Part shown: piece after piece, positions 5,850 to 43,245 of the stretch
How positions within the stretch are numbered: position 1 is the first letter of the stretch
How the letters are laid out: the number at the start of each line of letters is the position of its first letter
Assembly: GCA_951812955.1 (NCBI GenBank)
Contig: OX638340.1
Span: 2,048,001-2,112,000, forward strand
Direction of reading: 5' to 3'
Origin: an uncultured Gemmatimonadota bacterium
GTDB taxonomy: Bacteria; JAAXHH01
DNA: 64,000 nt
Position numbers and translations under genes: made by a program
Notes under the pieces: generated by a model
The model's input: the letters and a program-made list of their open reading frames with translations, nothing else
Told to the model about the DNA's origin: nothing
Database searches by the model: none

Positions 5850-5923
5850 GCGCCTGTAGCTCAATTGGATAGAGCACCTGACTACGGATCAGGAGGTTGG
5901 GGGTTCGACTCCCTCCGGGCGTA
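5850..5923 (+). tRNA. tRNA-Arg (anticodon ACG)
   Basis: cloverleaf with 7-bp acceptor stem, TTCGACT T-loop, anticodon loop CTACGGA. Confidence 0.9.
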
Positions 5924-5944
5924 TATTACGCGGGACGCGGCGCC

Positions 5945-6438: not shown

Positions 6439-6460
<22 letters not shown>
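5945..6460 (+). CDS. tadA: tRNA-specific adenosine-34 deaminase
   Basis: CDA fold zinc motifs 'HAEMLAI' and 'PCAMCAGA'; 3' end overlaps the start of tRNA-Ser by ~20 nt. Confidence 0.85.
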
Positions 6461-6528
<68 letters not shown>

Positions 6529-6673
6529 CTTTCCATCTAAGCCACTCATTTAATTTGACTTATACTTTTGATACATGACAATTGCTCCGGATTCATTTCC
6601 GCAATTGTTCAGCATTTCGAATCCTAACCCTGCTTCATTCTCATCCATCCGCGTCATACCACACACACGTATC

Positions 6674-8644: not shown

Positions 8645-9048
8645 TATATCGGCAGTTCTTGAAAACCGCTTTGACTTCAGGAATCGCAGGTACGTATCCC
8701 GACATGGGACGCCAGGTGAAGAACCCGAGCAAGACGCGCGCGGTTCGAGATTTGGTCATGGTATATAGTTATTAAACACAATCAAGATGAATTCGGGGGG
8801 TTTTCTTGCTGTATAGCGCTTTTTAAACAAACGAGGCGATTACAACCCGACTGGTGAATTTCTATTGTTTCTGCAGGTTGGAAATGTTAAGTTACCTGAC
8901 CTGAAACGACGATGAGGTGTCGATGCAATGTGGTAGCAACTGTTTTGGTTTTTAAACTCGTGCGACAGTCAAAAACCCTGTCAACATTGGCCAGGGGAAC
9001 GAATTGTTGTGGGCATATTGGCGGTATTCGAGTATGCGACAATACCTG

Positions 9049-9133
9049 GGAGAGGTGCGAGAGCGGTCGAATCGGCACGCCTGGAGAGCGTGTGTTCACC
9101 ATGTGGACCGTGGGTTCGAATCCCACCCTCTCC
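9049..9133 (+). tRNA. tRNA-Ser (anticodon GGA)
   Basis: same acceptor/T-arm as the 6439 tRNA-Ser; anticodon loop CTGGAGA; long variable arm. Confidence 0.85.
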
Positions 9134-9229
9134 GTTGAAATCCGGGAAACCGGAATTGGAACGAAGGGGGAGTCGGATCTGGCCAGTCCTTGCCGGCCAT
9201 TTGGTACCGTGCCTCGTTCCACGAAATTT

Positions 9230-9302
9230 GGGGCAGTAGCTCAGTTGGGAGAGCGCCAGAATCGCAATCTGGAGGTCGGCGGTTCGATTCCGCTCTGCTC
9301 CA
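9230..9302 (+). tRNA. tRNA-Ala (anticodon CGC)
   Basis: GGGGCAG acceptor with G3:U70 Ala identity pair; anticodon loop ATCGCAA. Confidence 0.85.
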
Positions 9303-9376
9303 CTCGAGACGACGTGGCCGGCGTGATCATCAGACGGCCGTCCATGTCGTCCCGTAATACAGGCTTGGTACGAATA

Positions 9377-9650
9377 CGGTCGTGCTAGACGGGGAGTTAG
9401 CGGTGCCCTGTAACCCGCAATCCGCTACAGCGGGGTCGAATTCCCATCCCAAGGATCGCACTTGCGTCGCCGGTATGCGTTACAGCCGGTATTGAAAGTC
9501 AGGTCCTGCGCAACGTGACAACGCCCAACTCCGTCAGGACCGGAAGGTAGCAGCGGTAAGCGACTGAATCGTGTGCCGCGGGAGCGCCTGGCCGGAGCCG
9601 GCGGTACGGATGCCCCGATACGAGGAGATTCGAGGGTGGGTGCACGACCG
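9377..9650 (+). ncRNA. ffs: signal recognition particle RNA, long (Bacillus-type, Alu-domain-containing) form
   Basis: 5' segment 'CGGTCGTGCTAGACGGGGAGTTAGCGGTGCCCTGTAACCCGCAATCCGC...GAATTCCC' closely matches the B. subtilis scRNA 5' domain; domain IV motif 'GTCAGGACCGGAAGGTAGCAGC' at 9534-9555; 3' 'GCACGACCG' pairs with the 5' end; position just upstream of dnaX is the canonical ffs locus. Confidence 0.8.
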
Positions 9651-9702
9651 CTTAACTGTTTCCTCTTGATTTCGCCTGCCTTTCGTCCCGCTTAACCCAG
9701 GC

Positions 9703-11721: not shown

Positions 11722-11765
11722 AACCCGTCAGGGGCAACCGGGCGTGTAAAGGAAAGGATGAGGTT

Positions 11766-12083
11766 ATGGCAAAAGGCATGTCGGGCATGATGAAGCGCGT
11801 TCAGAGAATGCAGAAGAAGATGATGCAGCTTCAAGAAGAAATCGCCGGGCGCCGGGTCGAAGGCACGGCCGGCGGCGGCATGGTCACCGCGGTGGTCGAC
11901 GGCAAGCTGAACGTCGTTGAGCTCAGGATCGATCCGGCCGTGGTGGACGCCGATGACGTGGGGATGCTTGAGGATCTCGTACTGGCTGCCGTCAGCCAGG
12001 GTCAGCAGAAGGCGCAGGAAATGATGGATCAGGAGATGGGCCAGATCACCGGCGGACTCAACTTACCCGGCCTGGGTCAGTAA
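11766..12083 (+). CDS. ybaB: nucleoid-associated protein YbaB/EbfC
   Basis: 105 aa, canonical YbaB sequence and dnaX-ybaB-recR synteny. Confidence 0.9.
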   Translation: MAKGMSGMMKRVQRMQKKMMQLQEEIAGRRVEGTAGGGMVTAVVDGKLNVVELRIDPAVVDADDVGMLEDLVLAAVSQGQQKAQEMMDQEMGQITGGLNLPGLGQ

Positions 12084-12139
12084 CGCCCCGTCACGCGGCG
12101 TACCACTGAACCCGGCACAACGCATCAGGAATCGAAAGC

Positions 12140-12742
12140 ATGGCGCGCAAGTACAGTTCCGAGGCCCTGGCCATCCTGGTGGACGAACTGAGCCGCCTGC
12201 CCAACATCGGCAGGGTGACGGCCCAGCGGCTGGCCTTCCATATTCTGAAGGGACCGGCCGAACGCGCCTTCTCGTTGTCCGACGCCATTCGGGCGGTAAA
12301 GGAAAGGGTCCGGTACTGCGACGTGTGCTGGAACATCACCGAGTCCGAGACCTGCGAGATCTGTCACGACGCCCGGCGAAAACCGGAGACCATCTGCGTC
12401 GTGGAAGAACCACGGGACGTAATTACGCTCGAAAGCACCGGTGAGTACCGCGGCCTGTACCACGTGCTCCACGGCGCGCTTTCGCCTCTCGACAACATCA
12501 CCCCGGATGACATACGCGCCCGGGAGCTCATGCAGCGTATGGGCGAATCGGTGGAGGAGGTTATCATCGCGACCAATCCCAATATCGAGGGAGAGGCCAC
12601 CGCGCTCTACCTGAGCCGCCTGATCAAACCGCTGGGCGTACGGGTTACCCGCCTCGCCCGCGGTCTTCCCATGGGAGGCGATCTGGAATACGCCGACGAA
12701 GTGACCCTGGCCCGCGCCCTGGAAGGCCGTACAGAGTTGTAA
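12140..12742 (+). CDS. recR: recombination protein RecR
   Basis: HhH motif, C4 zinc finger (CxxC...CxxC), Toprim domain; conserved synteny. Confidence 0.9.
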   Translation: MARKYSSEALAILVDELSRLPNIGRVTAQRLAFHILKGPAERAFSLSDAIRAVKERVRYCDVCWNITESETCEICHDARRKPETICVVEEPRDVITLESTGEYRGLYHVLHGALSPLDNITPDDIRARELMQRMGESVEEVIIATNPNIEGEATALYLSRLIKPLGVRVTRLARGLPMGGDLEYADEVTLARALEGRTEL

Positions 12743-12793
12743 CACGGAACAGTATCGCGATCGCCGGACCGATCCGCCGATCCTCATACCGCC

Positions 12794-13378
12794 ATGAATC
12801 TGCCAAACAAACTGACCATATTCCGGATCATCCTGAGTCCCATCTTCATGGTCTTCTTCCTGGTGGATACATTGTATACGCGGTATATCGCCCTGGTGAT
12901 CTTCATGATCGCTTCGCTGACGGACCTGTACGACGGCTACCTGGCGCGGAAGACCGGCGTGATCACCAGTTTCGGCAAGTTCATGGACCCCCTGGCGGAC
13001 AAGATCCTCACGTCCACCGCCCTGATCTGCTTCGCGTCCCTCGGATACATCTACACCTGGATGGTCCTGGTCATCATCGGGAGAGACTTCATCGTGACCG
13101 GCCTGCGATGCATCGCGGCGTACCGGGGGCAGCTCATCCTGCCGACCCAGGTCGCCAAGTGGAAGACCGCTTCGCAGATGGTGGTCATCGTGATCATCCT
13201 GCTCTACATCAACGTCCAGACGACCATGGTCGCCTTCGGACAGTGGAACGGGGAGTTCGACGATATCGCCTGGTGGGTCCTCAACGGCATGGTTTTCGTC
13301 TCCATGTCGCTCACGGTCAGTTCCGGCCTCGATTACGTCGTCAAGAACCGGTCGATCTTCACCAGTCTGCTGAGGTAG
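12794..13378 (+). CDS. pgsA: CDP-diacylglycerol--glycerol-3-phosphate 3-phosphatidyltransferase
   Basis: CDP-alcohol phosphatidyltransferase motif 'DLYDGYLAR...G...DPLADK'; multi-TM. Confidence 0.85.
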   Translation: MNLPNKLTIFRIILSPIFMVFFLVDTLYTRYIALVIFMIASLTDLYDGYLARKTGVITSFGKFMDPLADKILTSTALICFASLGYIYTWMVLVIIGRDFIVTGLRCIAAYRGQLILPTQVAKWKTASQMVVIVIILLYINVQTTMVAFGQWNGEFDDIAWWVLNGMVFVSMSLTVSSGLDYVVKNRSIFTSLLR

Positions 13379-13380
13379 GA

Positions 13381-13836
13381 ATGGGCGCATTGATCATCCT
13401 GCTGTCGACCGGATGTTACGCCGGCTACACGCCGCGCGCGCCCGGCACGGCGGGGAGCGTGCTGGGAGTCGGACTGGTCTGGATACTTGCCGGACCGCTC
13501 GGGCTGACCCTCCCGTACTACCTGCTGGCCACCGCGGTCCTGTTCGTCCTCGGCGTCTGGGTATCGAGCCACGCGGAACCCCGGTTCGGCCACGACGGGC
13601 CCGAGATCGTAATCGACGAAATCGTGGGCGTCCTGATCGTCTTCGCCGGCATGCCGATCGATCTTTGGACGGTGGTTGCGGGCTTCGTCCTGTTTCGTGT
13701 CCTGGACATATGGAAACCATTCCCCTGCGACCGGATGCAGCGCCTCCCCGCCGGGCTTGGGGTCATGATGGACGACGCCGTGGCCGCGGTCTACGCCCAT
13801 CTCCTGTTATTGCTCATTGGATGGCTCGTTATATGA
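13381..13836 (+). CDS. pgpA: phosphatidylglycerophosphatase A
   Basis: 151 aa membrane protein, PgpA-like; starts 3 nt after pgsA stop. Confidence 0.75.
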   Translation: MGALIILLSTGCYAGYTPRAPGTAGSVLGVGLVWILAGPLGLTLPYYLLATAVLFVLGVWVSSHAEPRFGHDGPEIVIDEIVGVLIVFAGMPIDLWTVVAGFVLFRVLDIWKPFPCDRMQRLPAGLGVMMDDAVAAVYAHLLLLLIGWLVI

Positions 13837-15101
13837 AATCCGCCGCGATCATCACGATCGGCGACGAACTGCTCTACGGTTCCGTGGTCGACACCAACGC
13901 CGCCTACATCGGCCAGCGCCTGACGGAAACCGGTATCGAACCGGTCTTTTCCATAACCGTGGGCGACGAGGGTTCCCGCATCGGCGGGGCCCTGGAAGTC
14001 GCGTGCCGGCAGGCGGACGCCGTGCTCGTAACGGGCGGCCTGGGGCCGACCCACGACGATGTGACCAAGACCGTAATCGCCGAAGCAATCGGTCAGGACC
14101 TGGTGTTTCATCCCGATATACTCGAAACCGTGGAAAGCATGTTCACCCGGCGGGGCATGGCCATGCCGGAATCGAACCGCATCCAGGCCTACATGCCAAG
14201 GCACGCCGAGGTGCTCGACAATCCCGTCGGCACGGCACCCGGCTTTCTTGCGCACCATCACGGGACCGCTGTCTTCGTCATGCCGGGCGTTCCCCGCGAG
14301 ATGAAGCAGATGCTGAACGAACAGGTGCTGCCGCGGTTGAGGGACAAAGGCGCTGGCAGGGTCATCCTGCACCGGTGGATCCGAACGACCGGAATCGGCG
14401 AATCGAGCCTTACCCAGATCATCGGCGATGTCATCGATGAGGCCAAGGACGTAAAGATAGCTTCCCTGCCCCAGGAGACCGGCGTCAACTTCCGTCTCAC
14501 GGCCGAGGGCCGCACCGGGGACGAAGCCAGGCGGCGTATCGAAGCCGTCGAAACCCGGATGGTCTCCCGGGCCGGCGAACACATATACGGCGTGGACGAC
14601 GATACGCTCGAGGAAGTGGTTGGACGTCTGTTGAAGGACGCGGGCGCAACGGTGGCGGTCGCCGAGTCCTGCACCGGCGGCCTCGTGGCATCCCGCATGA
14701 CCGACGTGCCGGGCAGTTCCGATTACCTGAAGGAAGGGGTCGTATCCTATAGCAACGCCGCGAAAATGGCGCGCCTCGAGGTGCCCGTCGGGACGATCGA
14801 CCGGTACGGCGCGGTCAGCGCGGAAACGGCGGCCGCCATGGCCACGGGTATCCGGCAGACCAGCGGCGCCACTTACGGCCTGTCCACGACCGGCGTAGCA
14901 GGACCCGGCGGCGGAACCCCCGAGAAGCCTGTGGGACTGGTCTACCTGGGACTCGCTACTGCGGACGGCGTGGAGACGCGTAAACTCTTGCTGGGTCCGG
15001 ACCGGCATGTCAACAAGACGCGAGCCGCCCTGGCCGCCCTGAATCTGCTGCGGCAGGCGCTGACCCGCGCAGCCAGTACAAATCAGCTTCCGGGGAACTG
15101 A
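13833..15101 (+). CDS. cinA: CinA family competence/damage-inducible protein (N-terminal MoCF-binding-like domain plus C-terminal PncC NMN deamidase domain)
   Basis: 422 aa; ATGA overlap with pgpA; both CinA domains recognisable. Confidence 0.85.
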   Translation: MKSAAIITIGDELLYGSVVDTNAAYIGQRLTETGIEPVFSITVGDEGSRIGGALEVACRQADAVLVTGGLGPTHDDVTKTVIAEAIGQDLVFHPDILETVESMFTRRGMAMPESNRIQAYMPRHAEVLDNPVGTAPGFLAHHHGTAVFVMPGVPREMKQMLNEQVLPRLRDKGAGRVILHRWIRTTGIGESSLTQIIGDVIDEAKDVKIASLPQETGVNFRLTAEGRTGDEARRRIEAVETRMVSRAGEHIYGVDDDTLEEVVGRLLKDAGATVAVAESCTGGLVASRMTDVPGSSDYLKEGVVSYSNAAKMARLEVPVGTIDRYGAVSAETAAAMATGIRQTSGATYGLSTTGVAGPGGGTPEKPVGLVYLGLATADGVETRKLLLGPDRHVNKTRAALAALNLLRQALTRAASTNQLPGN

Positions 15102-15131
15102 ATGCCCGGCCGCACTGTAGAAAGGCTACCG

Positions 15132-15686
15132 ATGCGCACGTTCATCGCCGTGGAAGTTCCGGCTGCAATCAGGGACCGTATCGCGGAACTTGAAAATCGA
15201 CTGAAAGGGACGGAGACCGATATCAAGTGGGTCGAACCGGGGAATATCCACATTACGCTGAAGTTCCTGGGCAACATCGAGACGGACCAGTCGGCGGTGA
15301 TCCGGAATGGACTGTGTTCGGCGCTGGATGCCATCGACTCATTCGACTTGAAGCTGGGGCGCGTAGGCGCATTCCCGGATTTGAACCGCCCCCGCGTCTT
15401 CTGGGTTTCCGTCGATGAAGGCCGGGAGGAACTGACCGCCATGCAGCAGTGCATCGAAAGCGAATTGCACGCCTGCGGCTTCGTTCGGGAGGAAAGACCC
15501 TTTTCGCCGCACCTGACCATCGGAAGGGTTCGGTCGCCAAAGGGTCTGGCCAAACTCACCGAAAGGGTCCAGGCGACGACCTTCGAGACCGAACCGTTTC
15601 CGGTGACTCGAGTGGCAGTCGTGAAGAGCGACCTGAAACCGGACGGACCGATCTACACGGTCATCGATCACGTAGAGCTGGGATGA
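15132..15686 (+). CDS. thpR: RNA 2',3'-cyclic phosphodiesterase (2'-5' RNA ligase LigT/ThpR family)
   Basis: two H-x-T-x motifs ('HITLKFLG', 'HLTIGRV'); alternative upstream ATG at 15102. Confidence 0.8.
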   Translation: MRTFIAVEVPAAIRDRIAELENRLKGTETDIKWVEPGNIHITLKFLGNIETDQSAVIRNGLCSALDAIDSFDLKLGRVGAFPDLNRPRVFWVSVDEGREELTAMQQCIESELHACGFVREERPFSPHLTIGRVRSPKGLAKLTERVQATTFETEPFPVTRVAVVKSDLKPDGPIYTVIDHVELG

Positions 15687-16348
15687 ATATGCCGACCGTT
15701 ACGGACATCAGCGCCAGAGGCAGCGGCAGACGCCGGGAACGCAAGGTCACGATCGACGGCGAACGCACCTTGACGATCACGGAAGAAACCTTCCTCCGGT
15801 TTGGACTTTTCGACGGGCTGGCAATGGACCCGGAACGGCTGCAGGAAATGGAACTGGCCGACGGCGTCGCCCGCGCCATGACGGAAGCCCACCGGCTCAT
15901 CGACCATCGTATGCGGACCCGCCGCGAACTGACGGTTAAACTCAGATCCCGCGGCCGGCCGGAGGACGTCATCGAGGAGGTTATGGACCGGCTCGAGAAC
16001 GTGGGACTCATCGACGATGGACGTTTCGCCCGGCTGTGGATCGACGAACGGCTTCGGAAAAGGCCGGTCGGACTATCCCTGCTGCGCCGCGAGTTACGTC
16101 AGAAGGGGATCGACGCCGAGATCGTCGAAGCCGCCCTGGAGGAAAGTGCATCCGGCGAAGGGGAAACCAGCCGGGCCTACGAGGCACTGCGTCGACAGGC
16201 CCATCGCTATGCCCGGCTGGACCGCGACGCGGCCCACCGCCGCATGGTCGCATTCCTGGGAAGGCGGGGGTTCGGGCAGGCCGTGATCTACAGCGTCGTC
16301 CACCGCGTACTGGACGAGATAGACGAAATAGAGGAATCCGAAAATTGA
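15683..16348 (+). CDS. recX: RecX family regulatory protein
   Basis: helical repeat protein with RecX-like sequence; located where recA-recX normally follows cinA, but no recA is present. Confidence 0.7.
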   Translation: MNMPTVTDISARGSGRRRERKVTIDGERTLTITEETFLRFGLFDGLAMDPERLQEMELADGVARAMTEAHRLIDHRMRTRRELTVKLRSRGRPEDVIEEVMDRLENVGLIDDGRFARLWIDERLRKRPVGLSLLRRELRQKGIDAEIVEAALEESASGEGETSRAYEALRRQAHRYARLDRDAAHRRMVAFLGRRGFGQAVIYSVVHRVLDEIDEIEESEN

Positions 16349-26201: not shown

Positions 26202-26276
26202 GGGCGATTAGCTCAGTTGGTTCAGAGCGCATGCCTTACAAGCATGAGGTCACTGGTTCGAATCCAGTATCGCCCA
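26202..26276 (+). tRNA. tRNA-Val (anticodon TAC)
   Basis: GGGCGAT acceptor, anticodon loop CTTACAA, GGTTCGAATCC T-loop. Confidence 0.85.
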
Positions 26277-26288
26277 TGCAGCAAATTC

Positions 26289-26363
26289 GGGGGCGTAGTT
26301 CAATCTGGTTAGAGCACTGCCCTGTCACGGCAGAAGTTGCGGGTTCGAGTCCCGTCGTCCCCG
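26289..26363 (+). tRNA. tRNA-Asp (anticodon GTC)
   Basis: anticodon loop CTGTCAC; TTCGAGT T-loop; discriminator G. Confidence 0.85.
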
Positions 26364-26421
26364 TTTATCTCGATCGATAGCCCGTCGAACATGCATGGTT
26401 CCGGCGGGCTATCTTGATTAT

Positions 26422-26505
26422 GCCGGAGTGGTGGAATTGGTAGACGCGAGGGACTCAAAATCCCTTGACCGCAAGGTCGTGTCGGTTCGAGTCCGACCTC
26501 CGGCA
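26422..26505 (+). tRNA. tRNA-Leu (anticodon CAA), long variable arm
   Basis: GCCGGAG acceptor, anticodon loop CTCAAAA, long extra arm. Confidence 0.85.
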
Positions 26506-35375: not shown

Positions 35376-37361
35376 CTACGCCCATTCGTGCAGGGCGTGT
35401 CCCTGGCCGGGAAACCAGATCCAGTCCACGACAAAACCCAGAAACACCCCCACGCTGTACCCCACGAGCACGCCCCAGGCAAAGGGCTGGGCCCGGCGGT
35501 AGATGGTCACCCCGCCGATCCGCATCAGCAGCATCTTGATCAGCCAGGCCAGGAACAGCGAGAACATGAGCAGGCGGGTCACGTCGGCGAAGGCCACGGT
35601 GAAGCCCACAGGTGCCAGGGGCCAGCCGGGAAACCGGTAGGTCAGGGTCGTCATGACCAGCATGATGACGCCGCCGAGAGCCATGAACAGGAACTCGGGC
35701 GGCTGTAGCTGGTCGGCGTTGCGGATCCACCGCACGATATCGTCGAAGTAGATCTCGTTGATGCCGCCGAAGGCGTCGCGCGTACCGAAGTTGTACGCGC
35801 CGATGGTCGTATTCCCGATGTAGATTGTGTACAGGACGGACGTCAGCATGCTGACAATGAAGGTGACGGTCATGAGGCCGAGAAGCCCCCGCTTGTCCAG
35901 TCGCAGGTCGGACAGTACCTTGTCGGACTGGGCGATGGTGCCGATCCCCATGCCCCGCCAGTTCCGGGCGTAGACGGATCCTAGGCCCAGGGTGGTCAGG
36001 CTCTGGGGATCGATGTTTCCCGAGCCGACGGTCAGTATGGTGAAATGGTGGGCGTTGACCGGAAGGTCCATGAAGGCCAGGCCTGTCTGTGCGATGATCC
36101 GTGCCGTGCCCAGGTACAGGATGAATAAGAACAACAGGTACACGGGCAGCATCTGCCAGGAAAGGCCCGATCCCACGAGCCAGGCCACCAGGTAGACCAG
36201 GCTGCCCGAGAATCCAAGCACGGCCACGCGATAGGACATCAACTCCGTGGCCGGACGCTCGCCGCCACGCAGGGCCTGCCGAAATACATCGGCGATCTGA
36301 GCGCGGGCAGTCCACAGGTGCCAGAATACGAATACGATGAATCCGCCGAAGAACTGGGCCTTGACCACAGCATTCACCCCCACCGGGCTGCCGGAATACT
36401 GGAGCCCGACGCGGTCCAGCAGGCCGCCTTCCAGCACGCCGCACAGGGCGAAGAACCAGAGGCTGAACGTGATCTCCAGCGGCGCCAGGAAAGCGAAGCA
36501 CAGGGCGTAGATGTTGACGCTGACCCTGATGGGATCGATGCCCTCCGCCAGGGTCATCGAACTCTGATAGAGCACGCCAATAGGTATGGGCGAAATGCCG
36601 CCCCAGAACGCGGCGATGTTCCAGATCATCAGGGCCAGGGCGGCGCCGAAGCCCACCTGGAACATGCGGTCGTACACGAAGCCGGGAAAGGTCCGTTCGG
36701 TCCGTTCGTCGTGCCGGATCAGGTCGACGGCCATCTGTACGAGGGGAAAGGAAAGCCGCTCGTGGGCCACCCAGGTCCTCCGCATGATGGTGGACATGCA
36801 TGCGCCCATGAAGAACAGCACGACGAAGAGGGTCAGCCACCAGAAGAGGGGCGGGAGCCAGGGCCCCCAGATGACGTTGCCGGCTCCTTCCGGGATTCCT
36901 TCGTAGAACCACACCAGCGTGTTGCCCTGGCCGCTGACCAGCAGCCAGTCCGGCAGATATTCGAAGAAGGTGGCCTCCCACTGGTTCTCAGGCCGCGCAA
37001 AATAATACGGCGTGGCGATGACCCCCATGAGATAAGCGACCAGGACCTTGCCCGGCACGAGGGAGGAAACGAACATCATCACGAAGACCAGGGCCAGCTC
37101 GCTTCCGCTCAGCACCCAGGCCGGTCTCCATGTTCTCAGCGCCGGGTTGACGATGAGCAGGAGGAAGAAGAAGGGGATCAGGACCGCGATGGGCAGGTGG
37201 GACATCGTCATGCGGGAGGACTGCACGAGGAAGGAGCCGAAGGGGACCCAGATGTTGATCAGGACAGCGAGGGCCAGACCCAGGACTACGGCGCGGCGGG
37301 ATATGCCGGCTGATCGCGATATACCGGGTCGCGGGATACCAATGCGCGGTTTGGTTGCCAT
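35376..37361 (-). CDS. uncharacterised polytopic integral membrane protein (~14 predicted TM helices)
   Basis: 661 aa, highly hydrophobic, Trp-rich helices, no recognisable catalytic motif; divergently oriented from the 1542-aa permease fusion. Confidence 0.6.
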   Translation of the reverse strand: MATKPRIGIPRPGISRSAGISRRAVVLGLALAVLINIWVPFGSFLVQSSRMTMSHLPIAVLIPFFFLLLIVNPALRTWRPAWVLSGSELALVFVMMFVSSLVPGKVLVAYLMGVIATPYYFARPENQWEATFFEYLPDWLLVSGQGNTLVWFYEGIPEGAGNVIWGPWLPPLFWWLTLFVVLFFMGACMSTIMRRTWVAHERLSFPLVQMAVDLIRHDERTERTFPGFVYDRMFQVGFGAALALMIWNIAAFWGGISPIPIGVLYQSSMTLAEGIDPIRVSVNIYALCFAFLAPLEITFSLWFFALCGVLEGGLLDRVGLQYSGSPVGVNAVVKAQFFGGFIVFVFWHLWTARAQIADVFRQALRGGERPATELMSYRVAVLGFSGSLVYLVAWLVGSGLSWQMLPVYLLFLFILYLGTARIIAQTGLAFMDLPVNAHHFTILTVGSGNIDPQSLTTLGLGSVYARNWRGMGIGTIAQSDKVLSDLRLDKRGLLGLMTVTFIVSMLTSVLYTIYIGNTTIGAYNFGTRDAFGGINEIYFDDIVRWIRNADQLQPPEFLFMALGGVIMLVMTTLTYRFPGWPLAPVGFTVAFADVTRLLMFSLFLAWLIKMLLMRIGGVTIYRRAQPFAWGVLVGYSVGVFLGFVVDWIWFPGQGHALHEWA

Positions 37362-37711
37362 GGTCTGGTACGCCGAAAGGACAAAGGAAACCGGTTTTTA
37401 GCGGTGAAAGGATTCCGGGTCTGTACGCTGAATTCAATATATCCGGTTCCCAACAGGCGGCACAACCCTAGATTTGGAACGCAAAGCCAAGGTCATGGTT
37501 TTTGCTTGAACCGGTGCTTCAACCTTTTTATATTGCTTTGTTCAAGAATGCAACGGCTCACTACGCTCGGGATGTATGCGTCTGATCGGGCCTCGCGGCA
37601 GTTCCGGGCCTTCCCATGTTAATCAGCGATGTCAAACGCGAAAGCGGCGAAATGCGCGGCTGCGAGGGTGCGGAACCGCCGGTTGCCGGATACCGACAGG
37701 GGTAGCAAGTC

Positions 37712-40700
37712 ATGTGGTCAAAGATAAAAACAGGGATCGGCATCACCATAGCACTGCTGATGTTGTCCTCGGTCACCATATTCCATCCCAAGGATATTAC
37801 CGAGAACATCCTGATGAAGCTGATCTCCCTGCCCGAACCCCAGGAGATTCAGCCCTTCCTTGGCCACGACCGTCCCCTCGAGGAGGCCCTGCGGGCGGTC
37901 AGCGCAGATTCGATCTCAAACACGGTAAAAACCCTCTCTTCCTATACTTCCCGCGTCGTGGGCTACGCCGGCGCCGATTCAGCCTACGAGTACCTGAAGG
38001 CCGAGTTTGAAGAGATCGGACTGGAGGACATCCGCACGGAGACGTTCCCGGTCACGGTGCCTATGGACAAGGGCTCGAAACTGACGGTGCTGGAGACAGG
38101 CGAGGTAATCCCGCTTCATGCCCTCTGGCCGAATCTCGTGCGCACGCCGACCACCCCCAGGGACGGCCTGACCGGCCCGATCGTCTACGGCGGCAAGGGG
38201 GAATTCGGCGAATTCAACGGGTACGACATCCAGGGCAGCGTCGTACTCATGGATTTCGACTCGCAGGACCGGTTCATCAACGCCCGGATGCTGGGCGCCA
38301 GCGCCATCGTATTCTTCGACAACGGACGGGTGACGCGGAGCGAAGCAGAACTCAAATTCATGGGGCTTCCGCTGAACGTACCCCGCTACTGGGTAGACAA
38401 GGCGCACGTACCCGGCCTGCTGGAACTTGCCGAATCCGGAACGAACCAGGTGAATGTCCAGGCCCGTATGGAATGGGAGGTCGTGGAAGGAAAGAACATC
38501 TTCGGCTGGATTCCCGGCCTTGACGAGGAAATGCCAAACGCCCGGGACGAGACCCGCACAAAATGGAAGGACTACACGATCGTCATCGAGTCCTACTATG
38601 ACGCCATGTCGGTGGTCCCGGGTCTGGCGCCCGGTGCGGAAAGCGCCACCGGCGTCGCCGCGCTGCTTGAGGTCGCCAGGGCGATGAAGCGGTACAGTCC
38701 CAAGTATTCGGTGGTCATCCTGGCCACGTCCGCTCATTTCATGGGACTGGAAGGGACGCACAACTGGTTGTACCGGCACGGCAGGGCGAGCAGTTACTTC
38801 ATGTCGAGAATCCCCGAGGAAGACAAGATCGATTTCGACATTTTCTTCGGGATCGATCTCTCAAGCCACGATTCCCGCATCGGAAGTTTCGCCTTCGGCA
38901 CCTTCGACAACGCGGCCTGGGCGACCAACCACTACATCAAGAACATCTTCGCGCCTTATTCGAGGAAATTCGCGGGCTACATCCAGGAGGCCTTCGGGGC
39001 CGGGGCGGACTCGGCCAGGTACGTCAACGCCATCGTGCCGCCGCAGCGAACCTGGAAGGACTTCATGCCCGTCAAGCTGGGGCTGGACAGCGAGGCCGTC
39101 ACGTACTTCGGCAAGAAGGGCATGTCCTTCGTCACACCGAACGGGACCCGTGGCCTGGTGGACACGCCCCAGGACCGATTCGAGTCGGTCAACATCGACA
39201 ATATCACCGAGCAGGCGCGTTCCCTCGCGGTCATGCTCGCCCGGGCCTCCACCGACGGCGAACTCTTCGAGGAGACCAAGCTCAAGATCCAGGACACGGC
39301 CCATGACATGGCGGGCACCGTTTATGAATTCGACCGGGACGTCAATTTCTTCGTCCCCAAGAAACCCATCCCCGGCGCGCTGGTCACCTACTTCAAGAGC
39401 CTGACCAATACGGGCGTGCGGGGCATCCTGATCAACAAGGCCGATTCCCTGGGCCGTTTCAACTTCCGTCCGCTGAAACAGCAGAAGGGTCCGATCAAGC
39501 TTCGGTCGTACGCCCTTGACGACGAGGGCGAGATCATCTACGCGCCGGACCTGGGCCAGGAAGGCGACAAGACCTTCCCCCTGAACGCGGCGAGCGGCGC
39601 AAACGAGAACACCACCCTCCAGATCGTTTTCCGCGCCAAGGCCCTCGACGTGTACGAGATCATCGACTCCCGTTACCTGACCGCGCTGGACCAGTTGACC
39701 GTCCTGGCGCAGAACGACGCCGAGCCCCAGTGGTACGGCCACAGTTACATTGAAAAGCAGAGCGGCTCGGAGGGTCGGACCGTGCCCGCGGCCGTCGTCT
39801 TCGCCAAGCCGGGCCAACACGTCAAGCTGCTCATGAGCACAAGCCTCTTCGGCGTCAAGTACCTGTTGACCAACGCGCCTGATTCCTTCCTGAAGGACCC
39901 CGTCGAGCCGGGCGAAGTGACTCTGGAACTCCTGGAACAGGCCCAGGGACAGGGCTACCCGATCGACCAGGGGCTGATCGTAAATCCGTCCTACCAGGGC
40001 ACGCGGGACATGTGGGTCGTGGACGACGTCCGGCTCAAGCAACTCGCGCGCTTCGGCGTGGAGAACCAGCGCATCGAGCAATTGCACGAACAGGCGCGCG
40101 TCACCCTCCTCGAGGCGGAGGAGCACCTCGCGAACAGGGAGTACGACGCCTTCATCTCCAAGTCGCGTGAGGCCTGGGGCCTCGAGGCGCGGGGCTACCC
40201 GGAGGTCAAGTCCACGGCGGACGACACGGTCAAGGGCGTGATCTTCTATTTCATCCTGCTCATCCCCTTTTCCTTCTTCATGGAACGTCTGGTCTTCGGT
40301 TTTCCGACGATCAACAAGCGGATCTTCGGTTTCTCCGTCTTCTTCATTGCGGTTTTTCTCGTGCTGCAGCTGGTACATCCCGCCTTCAAGCTCAGCACGT
40401 CGCCCTACGTCATCTTCCTGGCCTTCGTCATCTTCGCGCTGGGGACGACCGTGCTCATCATCGTCCTGTCGAAGTTCAACCAGGAAGTACAGAAGATCAA
40501 GCGCGCGCAGACCGGCATGCACGAGGCCGACATCGGCCGGTTGAGCGCCACGGCCGTAGCCCTGTCGCTGGGCGTTTCCAATCTGCGCAAGCGAAAGGTC
40601 CGCACGGCCCTCACGGCGGCCACCATCACGCTGCTCACTTTTACCGTGCTGTCCTTCACGTCCATCACGACGTCGCTGAGATACTACAAGCTGGAACGGT

Positions 40701-42340
40701 ACAACGAACCGACCTATGAAGGGACGCTGGTCCGGGACCGTAACTGGAAAGGGCTGCAGCCCTCCGTATACGATTATCTGAAGAGCACTTTCCAAGACAA
40801 GGCCACGCTGATACCCCGCGCCTGGTACATGTCCCAGGTCAAGGGTGAGAAGGGCTTCTTCGCCTTCTCGTCGCCCAGTTCGTCCCGCGAAAGCTACGTG
40901 AACAGCATCCTGGGACTGACGCCGGACGAGCCAAGGGCGACCGGGCTCGATGATTACCTCCTTGGGGGAAGATGGTTCCTGCCCGGCGAACGGGACGCCG
41001 TCATACTGCCCGACGACGTTGCAAGAGTGGTGGGCATCGCGCCGGAAGACGCTGGTTCCGCCTTCGTCGACATGTTCGGCATGCGGCTGCAGGTCGTCGG
41101 CGTGATCGATTCCCGCCGGTTCAACCAGCTCAAGGACCTGGACGACGAAAAGCTCACGCCCGTCGACCTGGTCCAGGAGAAAGGCAAGATCGCGCAGCGC
41201 ATCGGCGAGGACCCCCGCCTGCAGGCCGAATCCCCGCCTGAAGCCTTCATACACCTCGAATCCAATAACGTCATGATCCTGCCGTACGAGACGGTCATGG
41301 ACCTCGATGGAAAGACCTATTCGGTCGCCATCACCGACTTCCTGGACGAGAGCGGGCAGCCGAACCCCGATTTCGATCGCGATATCGAGGACTTCCTCTC
41401 GCGGGTCGCCATGACCATGTTCGTCGGCAAGGACGGTACCGTAAACGTATACAGTTCCATCGGTTCCACCTCCATCGGCGGCATCGGCAACTTCCTCATC
41501 CCCATCCTCGTCGCCGCCATGATCGTGCTGAACACCATGATGGGCGCGGTCCACGAACGCTTCCGGGAGATCGGCGTCTACAGCTCGGTCGGACTGGCGC
41601 CGAGCCATATCGCGGCGCTGTTCCTGGCGGAGTCCTCCGTCTTTGCCACGGTCGGCGCCGTACTGGGCTACCTGGGGGGACAGACCATCACCCTCGTACT
41701 GTCGAATTACGACATCCTCGCCGGTCTTTCGCTGAACTATTCCTCCCTGTCGGCCGTCTGGTCGGTCGTCGTGGTCATGGCCACGGTGTTCCTGTCGACG
41801 GCCTACCCGGCCAAGAGGGCGGCGGACATGGCCGTGCCTGACGTGGGCCGGGAATGGAAATTCCCCGAGCCCGATGGAGACGACTGGAGCTTCGATTTCC
41901 CCTTCACCATCGGAAGCGTCGAGGTACTGGGCATGTACGCCTATCTCACGCGGGTCTTCGAATCCTACGAGGAGGGTTCCCTGGGCGCGTTCGTCACGGA
42001 GAACGTCCGGTTGACCGCCGTGGAAGGCCCATCGGACCAACCCATGTACCACATCTCGATGATGACCTGGCTCGCGCCCTACGACCTGGGTATCAGCCAG
42101 AAGGTTTCTCTCAGTGCCGCGCCGGCGGAAAATGAAAAAGATCTCTACGCCGTGTGGGTGGACATCCACCGCGAGAGCGGCGACGTGGCGTCCTGGCAGC
42201 GCATTAACCGGCGCTTCCTGAGCGTGCTGCGCAAACGCTTCCTGGTCTGGCGCACCCTTTCCCAGGATCTCAAGAACGAATACGCGGCGACTGGGAGGGA
42301 AGCGACCAAAAAGACGCAAGAAGCGGAACTGCCCGTATGA
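37712..42340 (+). CDS. giant fusion protein: N-terminal signal-anchor plus degenerate M28-peptidase-like domain, central unknown domain and 3 TM helices, C-terminal MacB/FtsX-type permease module
   Basis: 1542 aa. The M28-like region ('AESATGVAALLEVARAMKR...VVILATSAHFMGLEGTHNW') has the canonical Asp/Glu-Glu metal ligands substituted. FtsX TM1 is at 'VRTALTAATITLLTFTVLSF', followed by a large extracytoplasmic domain. The FtsX C-terminal 3-TM bundle is at 'GNFLIPILVAAMIVLNTMMGAVHERFREIGVYSSVGLAP...AVWSVVVVMATVFLSTAYPAKRAA'. Confidence 0.8.
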   Translation: MWSKIKTGIGITIALLMLSSVTIFHPKDITENILMKLISLPEPQEIQPFLGHDRPLEEALRAVSADSISNTVKTLSSYTSRVVGYAGADSAYEYLKAEFEEIGLEDIRTETFPVTVPMDKGSKLTVLETGEVIPLHALWPNLVRTPTTPRDGLTGPIVYGGKGEFGEFNGYDIQGSVVLMDFDSQDRFINARMLGASAIVFFDNGRVTRSEAELKFMGLPLNVPRYWVDKAHVPGLLELAESGTNQVNVQARMEWEVVEGKNIFGWIPGLDEEMPNARDETRTKWKDYTIVIESYYDAMSVVPGLAPGAESATGVAALLEVARAMKRYSPKYSVVILATSAHFMGLEGTHNWLYRHGRASSYFMSRIPEEDKIDFDIFFGIDLSSHDSRIGSFAFGTFDNAAWATNHYIKNIFAPYSRKFAGYIQEAFGAGADSARYVNAIVPPQRTWKDFMPVKLGLDSEAVTYFGKKGMSFVTPNGTRGLVDTPQDRFESVNIDNITEQARSLAVMLARASTDGELFEETKLKIQDTAHDMAGTVYEFDRDVNFFVPKKPIPGALVTYFKSLTNTGVRGILINKADSLGRFNFRPLKQQKGPIKLRSYALDDEGEIIYAPDLGQEGDKTFPLNAASGANENTTLQIVFRAKALDVYEIIDSRYLTALDQLTVLAQNDAEPQWYGHSYIEKQSGSEGRTVPAAVVFAKPGQHVKLLMSTSLFGVKYLLTNAPDSFLKDPVEPGEVTLELLEQAQGQGYPIDQGLIVNPSYQGTRDMWVVDDVRLKQLARFGVENQRIEQLHEQARVTLLEAEEHLANREYDAFISKSREAWGLEARGYPEVKSTADDTVKGVIFYFILLIPFSFFMERLVFGFPTINKRIFGFSVFFIAVFLVLQLVHPAFKLSTSPYVIFLAFVIFALGTTVLIIVLSKFNQEVQKIKRAQTGMHEADIGRLSATAVALSLGVSNLRKRKVRTALTAATITLLTFTVLSFTSITTSLRYYKLERYNEPTYEGTLVRDRNWKGLQPSVYDYLKSTFQDKATLIPRAWYMSQVKGEKGFFAFSSPSSSRESYVNSILGLTPDEPRATGLDDYLLGGRWFLPGERDAVILPDDVARVVGIAPEDAGSAFVDMFGMRLQVVGVIDSRRFNQLKDLDDEKLTPVDLVQEKGKIAQRIGEDPRLQAESPPEAFIHLESNNVMILPYETVMDLDGKTYSVAITDFLDESGQPNPDFDRDIEDFLSRVAMTMFVGKDGTVNVYSSIGSTSIGGIGNFLIPILVAAMIVLNTMMGAVHERFREIGVYSSVGLAPSHIAALFLAESSVFATVGAVLGYLGGQTITLVLSNYDILAGLSLNYSSLSAVWSVVVVMATVFLSTAYPAKRAADMAVPDVGREWKFPEPDGDDWSFDFPFTIGSVEVLGMYAYLTRVFESYEEGSLGAFVTENVRLTAVEGPSDQPMYHISMMTWLAPYDLGISQKVSLSAAPAENEKDLYAVWVDIHRESGDVASWQRINRRFLSVLRKRFLVWRTLSQDLKNEYAATGREATKKTQEAELPV

Positions 42341-43245
42341 AGTTCGCCTTCTGCAACGAGATGTTCCGGGACGTGCCCCTCCGGCAGATCTTCCGCACCG
42401 CCGCGGAAATCGGCTACGACGGCGTGGAGATCGCCCCGTTTACGGTGGCCTCTTCGGTGAACCAGGTCGGTCCGGACACACGGAAGGCGATCCGCGACGA
42501 CGCAGCGGAATTCGGACTGGAGATCACGGGACTCCACTGGCTCCTGCTCAGTCCGGAAGGCCTTTATCTGAACCACCCCGACGACGGCATCCGGTACTGC
42601 ACCCGGCTGTATCTCTGCGACCTGATCAAATTCTGCGGTGACATTGGGGGCCGGGTCATGGTGGCCGGGTCACCGAAGCAGCGCGACGTGCTGCCGGACC
42701 AGACCTACGAGGCGACCTGGGAACGGACCCGTCAGGCATACCTGGAATGCCTGCCCGCGGCGGAGGAACACGGGGTGACCATCTGCCTCGAGCCCCTGGA
42801 CAGCGCCCAGACCAATTTCATCAACACCCCAGCCGAAGCCGCCCGGATGGTCCGGGAGATCGATCATCCGAATTTCCGCATGATCATCGACGTGCGGGCG
42901 ACCCTGTGCCAGGGTCTGGACGCAGCCGCGGCCATTCACGAGCATAAGGACGATATGGCCTACGTCCACTTCAACGACGCCAGCGGCAACGGCCCGGGTT
43001 TCGGAGAAACCGATTTCACGCCCATTCTGCAGGCGCTTCGAGACACCGGATACGAAGGGTACGGTTCGGTGGAGGTGTTCGACTATTCCTACGGAGCGGA
43101 GCACATCGCCAGGAAGAGCCTCGAGACGTTGAAGACGGCCTGGGCGGCAACGGACGCTGCGGAAGAGGGGGCGGCGACGGACGCGGCGGGTGAGCGCGCG
43201 ACCGGGCCGGATCAGGACGCGGCGGAAGAGGGGGCGGCCCGTTGA
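42337..43245 (+). CDS. sugar phosphate isomerase/epimerase (xylose isomerase-like TIM barrel) with acidic Ala/Glu-rich C-terminal tail
   Basis: AP-endonuclease-2/xylose isomerase-like TIM barrel motifs ('GYDGVEI', 'ICLEPL', 'HFND'); ATGA overlap with upstream giant gene. Confidence 0.7.
   Translation: MKFAFCNEMFRDVPLRQIFRTAAEIGYDGVEIAPFTVASSVNQVGPDTRKAIRDDAAEFGLEITGLHWLLLSPEGLYLNHPDDGIRYCTRLYLCDLIKFCGDIGGRVMVAGSPKQRDVLPDQTYEATWERTRQAYLECLPAAEEHGVTICLEPLDSAQTNFINTPAEAARMVREIDHPNFRMIIDVRATLCQGLDAAAAIHEHKDDMAYVHFNDASGNGPGFGETDFTPILQALRDTGYEGYGSVEVFDYSYGAEHIARKSLETLKTAWAATDAAEEGAATDAAGERATGPDQDAAEEGAAR

Follow-up and report, generated by a model that had tools for sequence, protein, structure and literature searches.

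A giant M28-like/FtsX membrane protein associated with predicted OPT-fold permeases in uncultured Latescibacterota and Gemmatimonadota

A 1542-residue membrane protein that joins a remodelled aminopeptidase-like head to a MacB/FtsX-type base is genetically associated with a previously unrecognised family of permeases of the oligopeptide-transporter (OPT/Yellow-Stripe-like) fold, of which it is tentatively read as the accessory partner. The pair forms a widespread module in uncultured Latescibacterota and Gemmatimonadota, on which no literature exists, and whose conserved core includes no ABC ATPase. It was analysed in a window of 64,000 nucleotides from an uncultured Gemmatimonadota bacterium (assembly GCA_951812955.1, contig OX638340.1, positions 2,048,001 to 2,112,000). 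A preliminary description, made from the sequence alone, had reported here a fusion of an M28-like domain and an FtsX-type permease without a cognate ATPase, paired divergently with a polytopic protein, and this observation is confirmed. Its interpretation, an undescribed envelope machine such as a mechanotransmission or sorting device using an FtsX fold without ATP hydrolysis, or a tethered pseudo-peptidase receptor, is only partly supported.

Domain Architecture of the Giant Protein

Table 1 lists the features of the locus. Pfam profiles detect a PA domain (residues 154-206, sub-threshold), Peptidase_M28 (287-442, E 9e-9) and FtsX (1263-1372, E 1e-14), whereas all NCBIfam matches are far below their cut-offs. 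Hydropathy analysis gives eight transmembrane (TM) segments (5-23; 839-857, 867-885 and 892-910; 967-985; 1255-1273, 1300-1318 and 1346-1364), which fits the N-in topology described previously. The AF2 model of residues 516-1542 (pLDDT 84) matches MacB, LolC/E, HrtB, FtsX and YtrF, and also the isolated MacB periplasmic domain. The FtsX unit is complete. Conservation is even along the whole length, with the cytoplasmic and membrane faces of the FtsX unit as the most conserved parts of the protein and the coupling-helix motif as the most conserved block.

TABLE 1. Features of the locus encoding the giant protein and its divergent partner (positions in the window; residues of the giant protein)
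Position	Strand	Feature	Basis
35376..37361	-	DUF6785+DUF6784 polytopic permease, 661 aa, OPT/Yellow-Stripe-like fold; conserved partner of the giant protein	
37362..37711		Divergent intergenic region with promoter-like elements conserved within the clade: + strand TTGAAC-17-TATATT at 37506-37534; - strand candidate TTGTGC-18-TATATT at 37465..37436	Promoter scan; hexamers invariant in an alignment with four relatives; minus-strand site read by eye from that alignment
37712..42340	+	Giant 8-TM fusion protein, 1542 aa	
37724..37780	+	N-terminal signal anchor (TM0, residues 5-23)	Hydropathy; K4 and K6 lie before the helix
37841..39256	+	Periplasmic PA-domain/M28-like head (residues ~44-515) with remodelled metal site: Y295, D297, E310, H342, F343, D382, D484	Pfam; PDB profile hits; residue conservation
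39302..39868	+	Beta-rich (beta-sandwich) domain, residues 531-719	
39986..40225	+	Long helical stalk, residues ~759-838, running into the membrane	AF2 helices 244-265, 271-292 and 296-346 in model numbering
40226..40501	+	Extra block of three TM helices, residues ~839-930	Hydropathy; AF2 model
40538..41830	+	Complete MacB/FtsX (type VII ABC) permease unit: N-terminal amphipathic helix, TM1, Porter/Sabre extracytoplasmic domain (40661-41479), TM2, coupling-helix motif HERFREIGVYSSVGLAP, TM3 and TM4	
41834..42337	+	Cytoplasmic C-terminal domain (residues 1375-1542; start approximate): beta-alpha-beta4 followed by two helices; no Walker A motif; a family hallmark	
42337..43245	+	Xylose-isomerase-like TIM-barrel gene overlapping the stop codon of the fusion (ATGA), predicted to be co-transcribed in this clade only	Pfam AP_endonuc_2 E 3e-41; NCBIfam IolO-like match below the cut-off; present after the fusion gene only in the window clade

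The protein is not a chimeric assembly or a gene-calling artefact, a reading for which no support was found and which can be regarded as refuted. Collinear full-length homologues of 1500-1600 aa, at 40-99% identity, occur in at least 582 species genomes, including chromosome-level MAGs, and the GC content is flat across the gene (0.60-0.63 across 40.0-41.0 kb).

The M28-Like Head

Profile searches of the head against the PDB return the aminopeptidase 2ek8 (E 3e-15), YwaD, AAP, nicalin and the transferrin receptor. The motifs around each ligand position can still be aligned, but none of the canonical ligands H97, D117, E152 and H256, nor the catalytic E151, is retained, and only D179 persists (as D382). 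The preliminary description was right that the canonical metal and catalytic residues are replaced, but its details require correction. The position of the Glu-Glu pair is occupied by H342-F343, and the "single Glu" noted there (E347) is not the aligned residue. The GAESATG motif does align with G-A-D-D-x-x-S-G, with E310 at the position of the bridging Asp.

The site is not simply degenerate. An alternative set (Y/F295, D297, E310, H342, D382, D484) is conserved in 121 close homologues and 93 distant ones (H342 in 84/94, D484 in 72/94, D382 in 83/94), so that it represents a repurposed site and not decay. The conserved Glu/His/Asp pocket could still be catalytic. Depositors name relatives "M28 family peptidase" or "FtsX-like permease family protein," but an ordinary secreted M28 aminopeptidase fused to an ordinary ABC efflux permease is very unlikely and already contradicted, since none of 94 diverse members has the canonical set and no ATPase, membrane-fusion protein or outer-membrane factor is conserved in the neighborhood.

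Alternatively, the giant protein might be a non-catalytic receptor or assembly factor that stabilizes, inserts or regulates the OPT-fold proteins and has no role in substrate handling. This is suggested by the hits to nicalin and the transferrin receptor, which are M28-derived non-enzymes in membrane complexes, and by the loss of the canonical catalytic residues. However, the former active-site positions are not relaxed but hold the new set across the family, which points to a working ligand or metal site, and a full Porter/Sabre domain and a conserved coupling motif would be needless in a passive chaperone. This explanation is considered unlikely.

The Divergent Partner and Its Genetic Linkage

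The 661-aa protein had been described as having no recognisable family, but it matches DUF6785 (E 4e-104) and DUF6784 (E 7e-17) and has the OPT/Yellow-Stripe transporter fold, which shifts the likely role of the pair from an envelope sorting device towards transport. The relation to OPT rests on fold alone, as neither the Pfam OPT model nor a PDB sequence profile gives a hit.

The association between the two genes is conserved. In 68 loci with at least 5 kb on both flanks, a DUF6785 gene or a gene of its distant sister family (here called DS) lies within 200 nt in 40, within 2.5 kb in 63 and within 10 kb in 66. DS proteins are 660-690 aa long, have 12 or more TM segments, and match DUF6785 by hhalign at 94% probability over 599 columns. 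When clades are defined at 65% identity of the giant protein, 17 of 18 have a partner within 2.5 kb, and in 16 of 18 it is on the same strand within 200 nt. No other neighbor is conserved. In the window clade the pairing is looser than elsewhere: the genes are divergent, IS elements separate them in one locus (L004), and the partner appears as two ORFs in two others (L013 and L015). Further support comes from one lineage in which FtsX unit, tail, linker and a complete DUF6785/DUF6784 lie in one ORF, in two independent assemblies that differ by substitutions (proteins P0406, and P0443 of locus L091). The linkage and the fusion support the earlier proposal of the divergent polytopic protein as the partner.

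The association is asymmetric. DUF6785 occurs without the giant protein in Armatimonadota and Phycisphaerales, whereas the giant protein almost never occurs without a DUF6785 or DS gene, as would be expected of an accessory subunit. Two to three paralogous sets are found per genome, each with its own partner, which is typical of uptake systems. Catabolic neighbors are scattered among the loci (hutH/hutU, amidohydrolases, PhyH and GFO_IDH_MocA), and genome context has suggested that many prokaryotic OPT homologues take up peptides (PMC3061005).

Absence of an ABC ATPase from the Conserved Core

As previously described, no cognate ATPase is encoded nearby. The only ABC ATPase in the window, at 50711, is followed by a BPD_transp_1 permease and belongs to a type I importer. 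Among the 68 loci, none lies within 2.5 kb in 66. This absence is not universal, however, because in 3 of 18 clades a LolD/FtsE-type ATPase with a minimal FtsX is co-operonic with the giant protein. An ATPase acting in trans therefore cannot be excluded for the organism of the window. Contigs of equal size suggest more such cases (protein P0179 with P0018, and P0229 with P0118), although this does not prove that two proteins share a contig.

These operons underlie a rival explanation, which is possible but doubtful. In this view the giant protein is a genuine type VII ABC mechanotransmission machine whose ATPase is encoded elsewhere. A LolD/FtsE-like ATPase, possibly with the 214-233 aa minimal FtsX as a heterodimer partner, would power movements of the Porter/stalk that switch the M28-like head, as a covalent analogue of FtsEX-EnvC or YbbAP-TesA, and the OPT-fold partner would take up the released product. 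All characterised MacB/FtsX-fold proteins need an ATPase, and the complete unit carries a highly conserved coupling-helix motif. Operons of the form fusion-DS-(x)-small FtsX-ABC occur in loci L001/2, L019, L075 and L082, which span 40-56% identity to the query, and the linkage may therefore be ancestral; in L082 the genes are separated by only 4 to 18 nt or overlap. The ATPase scores best against LolD, MacB, YbbA and FtsE models, and the small FtsX/ATPase pair is very common (at least 7953 homologues) and could be present in trans in the genome of the window. By contrast, the pair is absent within 5 kb in 14 of 18 clades, and elsewhere it stands alone next to an S41 protease, like a housekeeping FtsEX-type pair. 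The small FtsX resembles that of the fusion only generically (32% identity over 111 residues), and the family-specific cytoplasmic tail is inferred to start where an ATPase domain would dock.

A further possibility, considered unlikely, is that the FtsX-fold base is driven by the proton-motive force. The elevator movements of the OPT-fold partner or partners would then replace ATP hydrolysis as the motor for extracytoplasmic work by the head, for example in an envelope process rather than nutrient uptake. The ATPase is absent from the conserved core while one or two OPT-fold proteins are nearly always present, sometimes flanking the gene on both sides; the covalent fusion and the strong conservation of the cytoplasmic and membrane faces of the FtsX unit also agree with this reading. 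However, there is no precedent for it, DUF6785 also occurs on its own or with unrelated partners, which fits an autonomous transporter, and the multiplicity of paralogues fits uptake better than a housekeeping machine.

A Possible Role in Substrate Capture

The explanation preferred here, although held only tentatively, is that the giant protein and the DUF6785 protein are two subunits of one inner-membrane module. The DUF6785 protein would be an elevator-type secondary transporter, presumably proton-coupled, that takes up a peptide or an amino-acid-derived compound such as a metal chelate. The giant protein would be its accessory subunit, acting in substrate capture or gating. Its head descends from an enzyme that grips free peptide N-termini, has lost the dizinc catalytic centre but keeps the conserved Glu/His/Asp pocket, and would bind, or conceivably process by different chemistry, the substrate above the membrane. 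The MacB/FtsX-type base, with its Porter/Sabre domain and stalk, would position the head and relay conformational changes between head, membrane and cytoplasmic tail, handing the substrate to the transporter. An ABC ATPase is not part of the conserved core, and the conserved tail is inferred to begin exactly where the minor coupling helix of MacB contacts its ATPase domain. The domain anatomy, the folds, the remodelled site, the gene linkage and the natural fusion are shown by the analysis, whereas the direction of transport, the class of substrate, the capture and hand-over role and the independence from ATP are inferred.

Comparison with Known Systems

The type VII ABC transporters (MacB, LolCDE, FtsEX, HrtBA, YbbAP, YtrEF and BceAB) share the four-TM FtsX fold, with an N-terminal amphipathic helix, a Porter(/Sabre) extracytoplasmic domain between TM1 and TM2, and the ER..EIG coupling-helix motif between TM2 and TM3 (PMC5985334). 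The giant protein differs in that no ATPase is fused or conserved in the neighborhood, and in its four extra TM helices, its N-terminal ectodomain of ~800 residues and its family-specific cytoplasmic alpha/beta tail. Its conserved partner is a secondary-transporter-fold protein, and not an ATPase, an adaptor or an outer-membrane duct. FtsEX-EnvC/PcsB/RipC and YbbAP-TesA follow the same concept, in which a MacB-type base is coupled through helical elements to a hydrolase-like extracytoplasmic module (PMC7668044; PMC12646458). Here the module is joined covalently, belongs to the M28 family and lacks canonical catalytic residues, no ATPase is part of the conserved set, and no peptidoglycan-related context appears.

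Orphan FtsX permeases are not unprecedented. The ADOP family of duplicated (orphan) permeases, represented in NCBIfam by TIGR03434 (a weak hit here), comprises FtsX-fold permeases whose genes lack an adjacent ABC ATPase gene. ADOP proteins are tandem duplications of the FtsX unit, without an M28 head, a tail or an OPT-fold partner, and their function is also unknown.

The PA-domain M28 aminopeptidases (Aneurinibacillus aminopeptidase 2EK8, B. subtilis YwaD, Vibrio/Aeromonas AAP 1AMP) share the M28 fold with an inserted PA domain. The substitutions H97 to Y/F, D117 to E, E151 to H, E152 to F and H256 to D remove the canonical co-catalytic zinc site and the general base from the giant protein. 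Nicalin, nicastrin and the transferrin receptor are likewise membrane-anchored M28/PA ectodomains without peptidase residues that act as subunits of membrane complexes, but they are eukaryotic single-pass proteins whose former active sites are degenerate, whereas here a new residue set is conserved.

The DUF6785 partner shows no detectable sequence similarity to Pfam OPT or to the sequence of the Yellow Stripe-like transporter HvYS1 (PDB 7wsr), with an identity of 11%, and no OPT member is known to work with an accessory protein of this kind. A functional analogy only may be drawn with the TRAP/TTT transporters, secondary transporters that depend on a substrate-binding protein, in which an elevator-type transporter is fed by an extracytoplasmic binding module; the folds are unrelated, and the binding protein in those systems is soluble.

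Locus organization and domain architecture

The window holds an ATG-initiated ORF encoding the giant protein and a divergent ORF encoding its DUF6785/DUF6784 partner (see the table of features below, in which L-numbers denote the individual loci that were examined). In the giant protein, Pfam finds a sub-threshold PA domain (residues 154-206), Peptidase_M28 (287-442, E 9e-9) and FtsX (1263-1372, E 1e-14). Hydropathy gives eight TM segments, grouped 1 + 3 + 1 + 3, which with an N-in start places the first ~810 residues and the FtsX loop outside the cytoplasmic membrane and the last ~165 residues inside, as the preliminary description had proposed. The observation made in that description holds, whereas its interpretation is supported only in part. 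GC content is flat across the gene. NCBIfam gave only matches far below threshold for the giant protein and none for the partner, and Pfam searches at E<=10 with the central domain, the extracytoplasmic domain and the tail taken separately returned nothing meaningful. Rfam finds no RNA element in or near the locus; the RNA genes present elsewhere in the window are ordinary housekeeping content.

An AF2 model of residues 516-1542 (pLDDT 84, pTM 0.71) shows, in order, a beta-rich domain (531-719), long helices that run into the membrane (759-861), two further TM helices, the FtsX unit, and a beta-alpha-beta4 domain followed by two helices. The FtsX unit consists of an amphipathic helix, TM1, a 270-residue alpha/beta extracytoplasmic domain, TM2, a short coupling helix, TM3 and TM4. 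Two defining features of type VII ABC (MacB/FtsX) transporters are present, namely the FtsX-type four-TM permease fold with its coupling-helix motif and a Porter-containing extracytoplasmic domain between TM1 and TM2.

The intergenic region between the two genes contains back-to-back promoter-like elements, whose hexamers are invariant among clade relatives down to 87% protein identity. The site on the + strand would leave a 5' leader of about 170 nt, and the site on the - strand is a candidate. Locus L011 carries repeat-rich insertions in this spacer. Downstream, a xylose-isomerase-like TIM-barrel gene, closest to IolO but below the cut-off, overlaps the stop codon of the giant gene by 4 nt (ATGA). 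This arrangement is confined to the window's clade, although a homologue lies upstream of the module in L001.

Coordinates of the features in the window and in the related loci
Sequence	Coordinates	Strand	Feature
Window	9380-9647		Bacterial large SRP RNA (housekeeping RNA genes, including seven tRNA genes, at 5850-9647 and 26202-26505)
Window	35376..37361	-	DUF6785/DUF6784 partner, 661 aa
Window	37362-37711		Divergent intergenic region
Window	37506-37534	+	Promoter-like element TTGAAC-17-TATATT
Window	37465..37436	-	Candidate promoter-like element TTGTGC-18-TATATT
Window	37712..42340	+	Giant protein, 1542 aa
Window	42337-43245		Xylose-isomerase-like TIM-barrel gene
Window	50711		ABC ATPase next to a BPD_transp_1 permease
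L001	14686-16701		DS family protein
L006	15832-17883		DS family protein
L034	5845-7911		DS family protein
L001	16752-19583		Downstream operon extension
L019	7999-11110		Downstream operon extension
L075	16402-19688		Downstream operon extension
L082	16426-17837		Downstream operon extension (minimal FtsX and ATPase only)
L089	7313-11622		Stand-alone minimal-FtsX/ATPase pair next to an S41 protease
L090	8165-11531		Stand-alone minimal-FtsX/ATPase pair next to an S41 protease
L004	5208-9353		Partner gene separated from the giant gene by transposase and other genes
L005	2025-3494		PhyH-family gene
L081	8767-9672		PhyH-family gene
L083	8082-8975		PhyH-family gene
L091	6398-7648		PhyH-family gene
L091 (ENA ERZ26167216 ctg492578)	8591-15043		M28 head, in-frame stop and fusion ORF
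L091	10001-15043		Fusion ORF (protein P0443), FtsX unit and tail with DUF6785/DUF6784, 1680 aa
L087 (Armatimonadota)	12208-16185		1325-aa neighbour of DUF6785

Family distribution and conservation

A protein search returned at least 633 collinear homologues of about 1500-1600 aa at 40-94% identity, from Latescibacterota, Gemmatimonadota, Zixibacteria and Planctomycetota MAGs, and a scan of one genome per species found at least 582 genomes with a relative. These include chromosome-level MAGs at 93-98% identity to the window, among them the 98%-identical chromosome OY762445.1, and many genomes with two or three paralogues, so that the gene is not an artefact. Near-identical loci (93-99% identity; L007, L012 and others) are labelled Gemmatimonadetes in some records and Candidatus Latescibacterota in others, meaning that the phylum assignment of this lineage is inconsistent; several of these records may derive from sponge metagenomes.

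Conservation is even along the whole protein, and peaks at the TM2-coupling helix-TM3 block and at the segment just after TM4. The C-terminal tail alone finds 1388 representatives in a library clustered at 50% identity (938 at E<=1e-10), and almost always lies at the extreme C-terminus of proteins 1450-3050 aa long. Longer variants keep the same domain order. By contrast, the apparent "short" architectures (about 600 aa, FtsX plus tail only) are truncated gene calls; one of these proteins, P0436, clusters with a 1654-aa member.

The M28-like site

The head belongs to the M28 fold and sequence family and carries a PA insert, as its profile also hits 2ek8 at E 3e-15, although the PA match itself is weak. 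Alignments to AAP (1AMP), 2EK8 and YwaD map the ligand positions as follows.

Residues of the giant protein aligned with the active site of AAP
AAP residue	Role	Residue in the giant protein
H97	Zinc ligand	Y295 (Y, F or H in the family)
D99	Conserved in the H-x-D motif	D297
D117	Bridging zinc ligand	E310
E151	Catalytic base	H342
E152	Zinc ligand	F343
D179	Zinc ligand	D382 (by the G-x-D-L-S motif only)
H256	Zinc ligand	D484 ("vDTPxD" against "YHTPxD")

Neither the co-catalytic His-Asp-Glu-Asp-His ligand set nor the general base Glu is retained. Among 121 close homologues D297, H342 and D484 are invariant, and E310 and D382 nearly so. Among 93 more distant full-length representatives plus the query (94 sequences) the dominant pattern is Y-D-E-H-F-D-D, His is present at position 342 in 84, and none has the canonical set. 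The dizinc aminopeptidase centre is therefore lost, and has been replaced by an ancestral, selected Glu/His/Asp constellation, which is not the relaxed pattern expected in a dead pseudo-enzyme.

The partner protein and its predicted fold

The partner matches both Pfam models above their gathering scores, with 349 bits for DUF6785 (cut-off 25) and 62 bits for DUF6784 (cut-off 26.4). Its assignment to the OPT superfamily rests on the OPT/Yellow-Stripe fold alone, as no link is detectable at the sequence level: Pfam OPT (PF03169) gives no hit for any of 30 members even at E<=10, the family profile finds nothing among PDB sequences, and there is no detectable similarity to the YS1 sequence. The only hints of proton-coupled uptake of peptides or metal chelates, which is inferred, are conserved charged residues, namely E200 (invariant in the ERL-FPL motif), E87, R352 and K608. 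Prokaryotic OPT homologues are widespread, about 640-665 aa long, had not been characterized biochemically as of 2011, and often sit in peptide-related contexts (PMC3061005).

Conserved gene linkage

ORFs were called in 87 loci and searched with iterated profiles. Two partner families recur next to the giant gene. One is DUF6785, and the other is an unannotated family, here called DS, of 660-690 aa proteins with 12 or more TM segments, no meaningful Pfam hit at E<=10 and no NCBIfam hit. DS is a distant relative of DUF6785 (hhalign probability 94%, E 1.4e-7, extending over 599 columns), and the two share an E-R-L-x-F-P motif (ERLPFP). DS proteins are encoded at the three loci tabulated and at 60 others but are absent from the window; they lie within 2.5 kb of the giant gene, usually just downstream, in 14 of 18 clades, and the family deserves a model of its own. 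No other gene family is conserved around the giant gene.

Linkage of the giant gene to DUF6785 or DS genes and to ABC ATPases
Measure	Result
Loci with at least 5 kb on both flanks	68
Partner within 200 nt	40 of 68
Partner within 2.5 kb	63 of 68
Partner within 10 kb	66 of 68
ABC ATPase within 2.5 kb	2 of 68
Clades (at 65% identity) with a partner within 2.5 kb	17 of 18
Clades with a same-strand partner within 200 nt	16 of 18

The window's clade is the exception in arrangement, since the two genes are divergent and separated by 351 nt. Within this clade the partner gene is loosening its tie to the giant gene. Two transposase genes and two other genes (DUF488 and DuOB) lie between them in L004, only a 285-aa fragment remains in L008, 9 kb away, and the partner is split into two ORFs in L013 (476+222 aa) and L015 (287+379 aa). 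This could reflect decay or assembly error. Close relatives of the window's organism, however, carry a second paralogue in the tight order DUF6785-giant-amidohydrolase-DS (L065, L071 and L079).

Natural fusion of the two proteins

In one cluster of tail-bearing proteins the sequence continues from the tail, through a linker of about 50 residues, into a complete DUF6785/DUF6784 domain within one ORF that also holds the FtsX unit. This "Rosetta stone" appears in two independent assemblies that differ by substitutions, as protein P0406 on a JGI contig and as P0443 on a 259 kb ENA contig (locus L091). The DUF6785 profile scores it at E 5e-119, and the precomputed Pfam annotation agrees. In L091 the M28 head lies upstream in the same frame but is separated from the rest by a single in-frame stop inside a conserved helix, which is either a sequencing error in a 9x contig or a nonsense mutation, and so qualifies this evidence. 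The join is topologically sensible, since the tail is cytoplasmic and the arginine/lysine-rich N-terminus of DUF6785 should, by the positive-inside rule, be cytoplasmic too.

ABC ATPases near the giant gene

No cognate ABC ATPase is fused to the giant protein or encoded with it in the window. The protein contains no NBD, its tail has no Walker A motif, and the only ABC ATPase in the 64 kb window lies 8.4 kb away next to a BPD_transp_1 permease, so it belongs to a type I importer. No type VII ATPase lies within 5 kb in 15 of 18 clades. The ATPases near the fusion in the L081/L083 clade were considered and rejected as type VII partners, as that in L083 is an importer ATPase (TOBE domain, next to BPD_transp_1) and that in L081 an atypical 676-aa ABC protein.

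In the remaining 3 of 18 clades (L001/2, L019, L075 and L082, 40-56% identical to the query) the operon continues beyond DS. It adds a minimal FtsX of 214-233 aa (214-228 aa in the tabulated extensions), with four TM helices, a loop of about 40 residues and no Porter domain, and an ATPase that scores best against LolD, MacB, YbbA and FtsE models. The extension also holds a gene of about 290-350 aa with no family and a PqqD-like gene, except in L082, where only the minimal FtsX and the ATPase are present, packed tightly against DS in genes that overlap or lie 4-18 nt apart. The small FtsX is not a specific paralogue of the fusion's FtsX unit, as the two share only a generic 32% identity over TM2-4. 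Its family is huge, with at least 7953 homologues, and in the two neighbourhoods retrieved from other genomes (L089 and L090) it forms a stand-alone pair with the ATPase beside an S41 (Ctp-type) PDZ protease, resembling a housekeeping FtsEX-like module. The ATPase is therefore not part of the conserved core, but energization in trans cannot be excluded, and this alternative, although doubtful, is only slightly less favored than the reading proposed below.

Functional interpretation

The most economical reading, held tentatively, is a composite uptake module. In this view the OPT-fold proteins are the translocators, and the giant protein is an accessory subunit whose M28/PA-derived head captures, or processes by non-canonical chemistry, a peptide-like or chelate-like substrate, while its MacB-type base relays or gates delivery to the translocator. 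Domain architecture, the altered M28 site, gene linkage and the natural fusion were established from the sequences and models, whereas uptake and its coupling to protons, the class of substrate, its capture and delivery, and independence from ATP are inferred.

Three observations support this reading. First, the dependence is asymmetric, since DUF6785 exists without the giant protein but the giant protein almost never occurs without DUF6785 or DS. In the Armatimonadota locus L087, DUF6785 is followed by a 1325-aa protein with no family hit that is unrelated to the giant protein, and DUF6785 transporters may pair with different large accessory proteins in other phyla. Second, genomes carry multiple paralogous sets. 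Third, catabolic genes are scattered nearby, including hutH/hutU, amidohydrolases, PhyH and GFO_IDH_MocA. A PhyH-family Fe/2-oxoglutarate dioxygenase recurs near the giant gene in four of the 18 clades plus L091 (L005, L073, L080, L081, L083 and L091), and GFO_IDH_MocA oxidoreductases (three clades) and amidohydrolases also recur, which may hint at the chemistry of the substrate. Against this reading stand the lack of experimental evidence and of an identified substrate, an OPT assignment based on fold alone, and the dependence of every known FtsX-fold protein on ATP. Little weight is left for a PMF-driven mechanotransmission model, for a nicalin-like assembly-factor model, and for the trivial readings that are already refuted.

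There is nevertheless a real, if small, chance that the module represents a categorically new, ATP-independent coupling of the two folds. It would then be a MacB/FtsX-fold mechanotransmission device that has dispensed with ATP and is mechanically coupled, and in one lineage covalently fused, to an elevator-type OPT-fold proton symporter. Either the proton-motive force would drive extracytoplasmic work by the remodelled M28 head, or the head and Porter domain would gate substrate delivery to the symporter. Either way this would be a new class of composite transporter, spread across Latescibacterota, Gemmatimonadota and related uncultured phyla.

Relation to known systems

If the two proteins work together, this is a new way of building a transporter. 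It also gives a first functional handle on Pfam DUF6785 and DUF6784, on the unnamed DS family of about 670-aa permeases, on prokaryotic OPT-fold proteins, and on an M28-derived domain with a new, fixed Glu/His/Asp site. The organisms are abundant, uncultured bacteria, apparently of sponges and sediments, whose nutrient acquisition is known only from genome inference. In the literature searched, no paper mentions DUF6785, DUF6784, or an M28-FtsX fusion in these phyla, and depositors call the protein "M28 family peptidase," "FtsX-like permease" or "hypothetical."

Every characterized FtsX/MacB-fold protein is the membrane half of an ATP-driven machine. Here, a large family keeps that fold intact, but its one constant companion is a secondary-transporter-fold protein and not an ATPase. 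All the component folds are known, and what is new is their combination: a type VII permease fold without a conserved ATPase, tied genetically and once covalently to OPT-fold proteins, together with a remodelled, conserved M28 site and a family-specific cytoplasmic tail.
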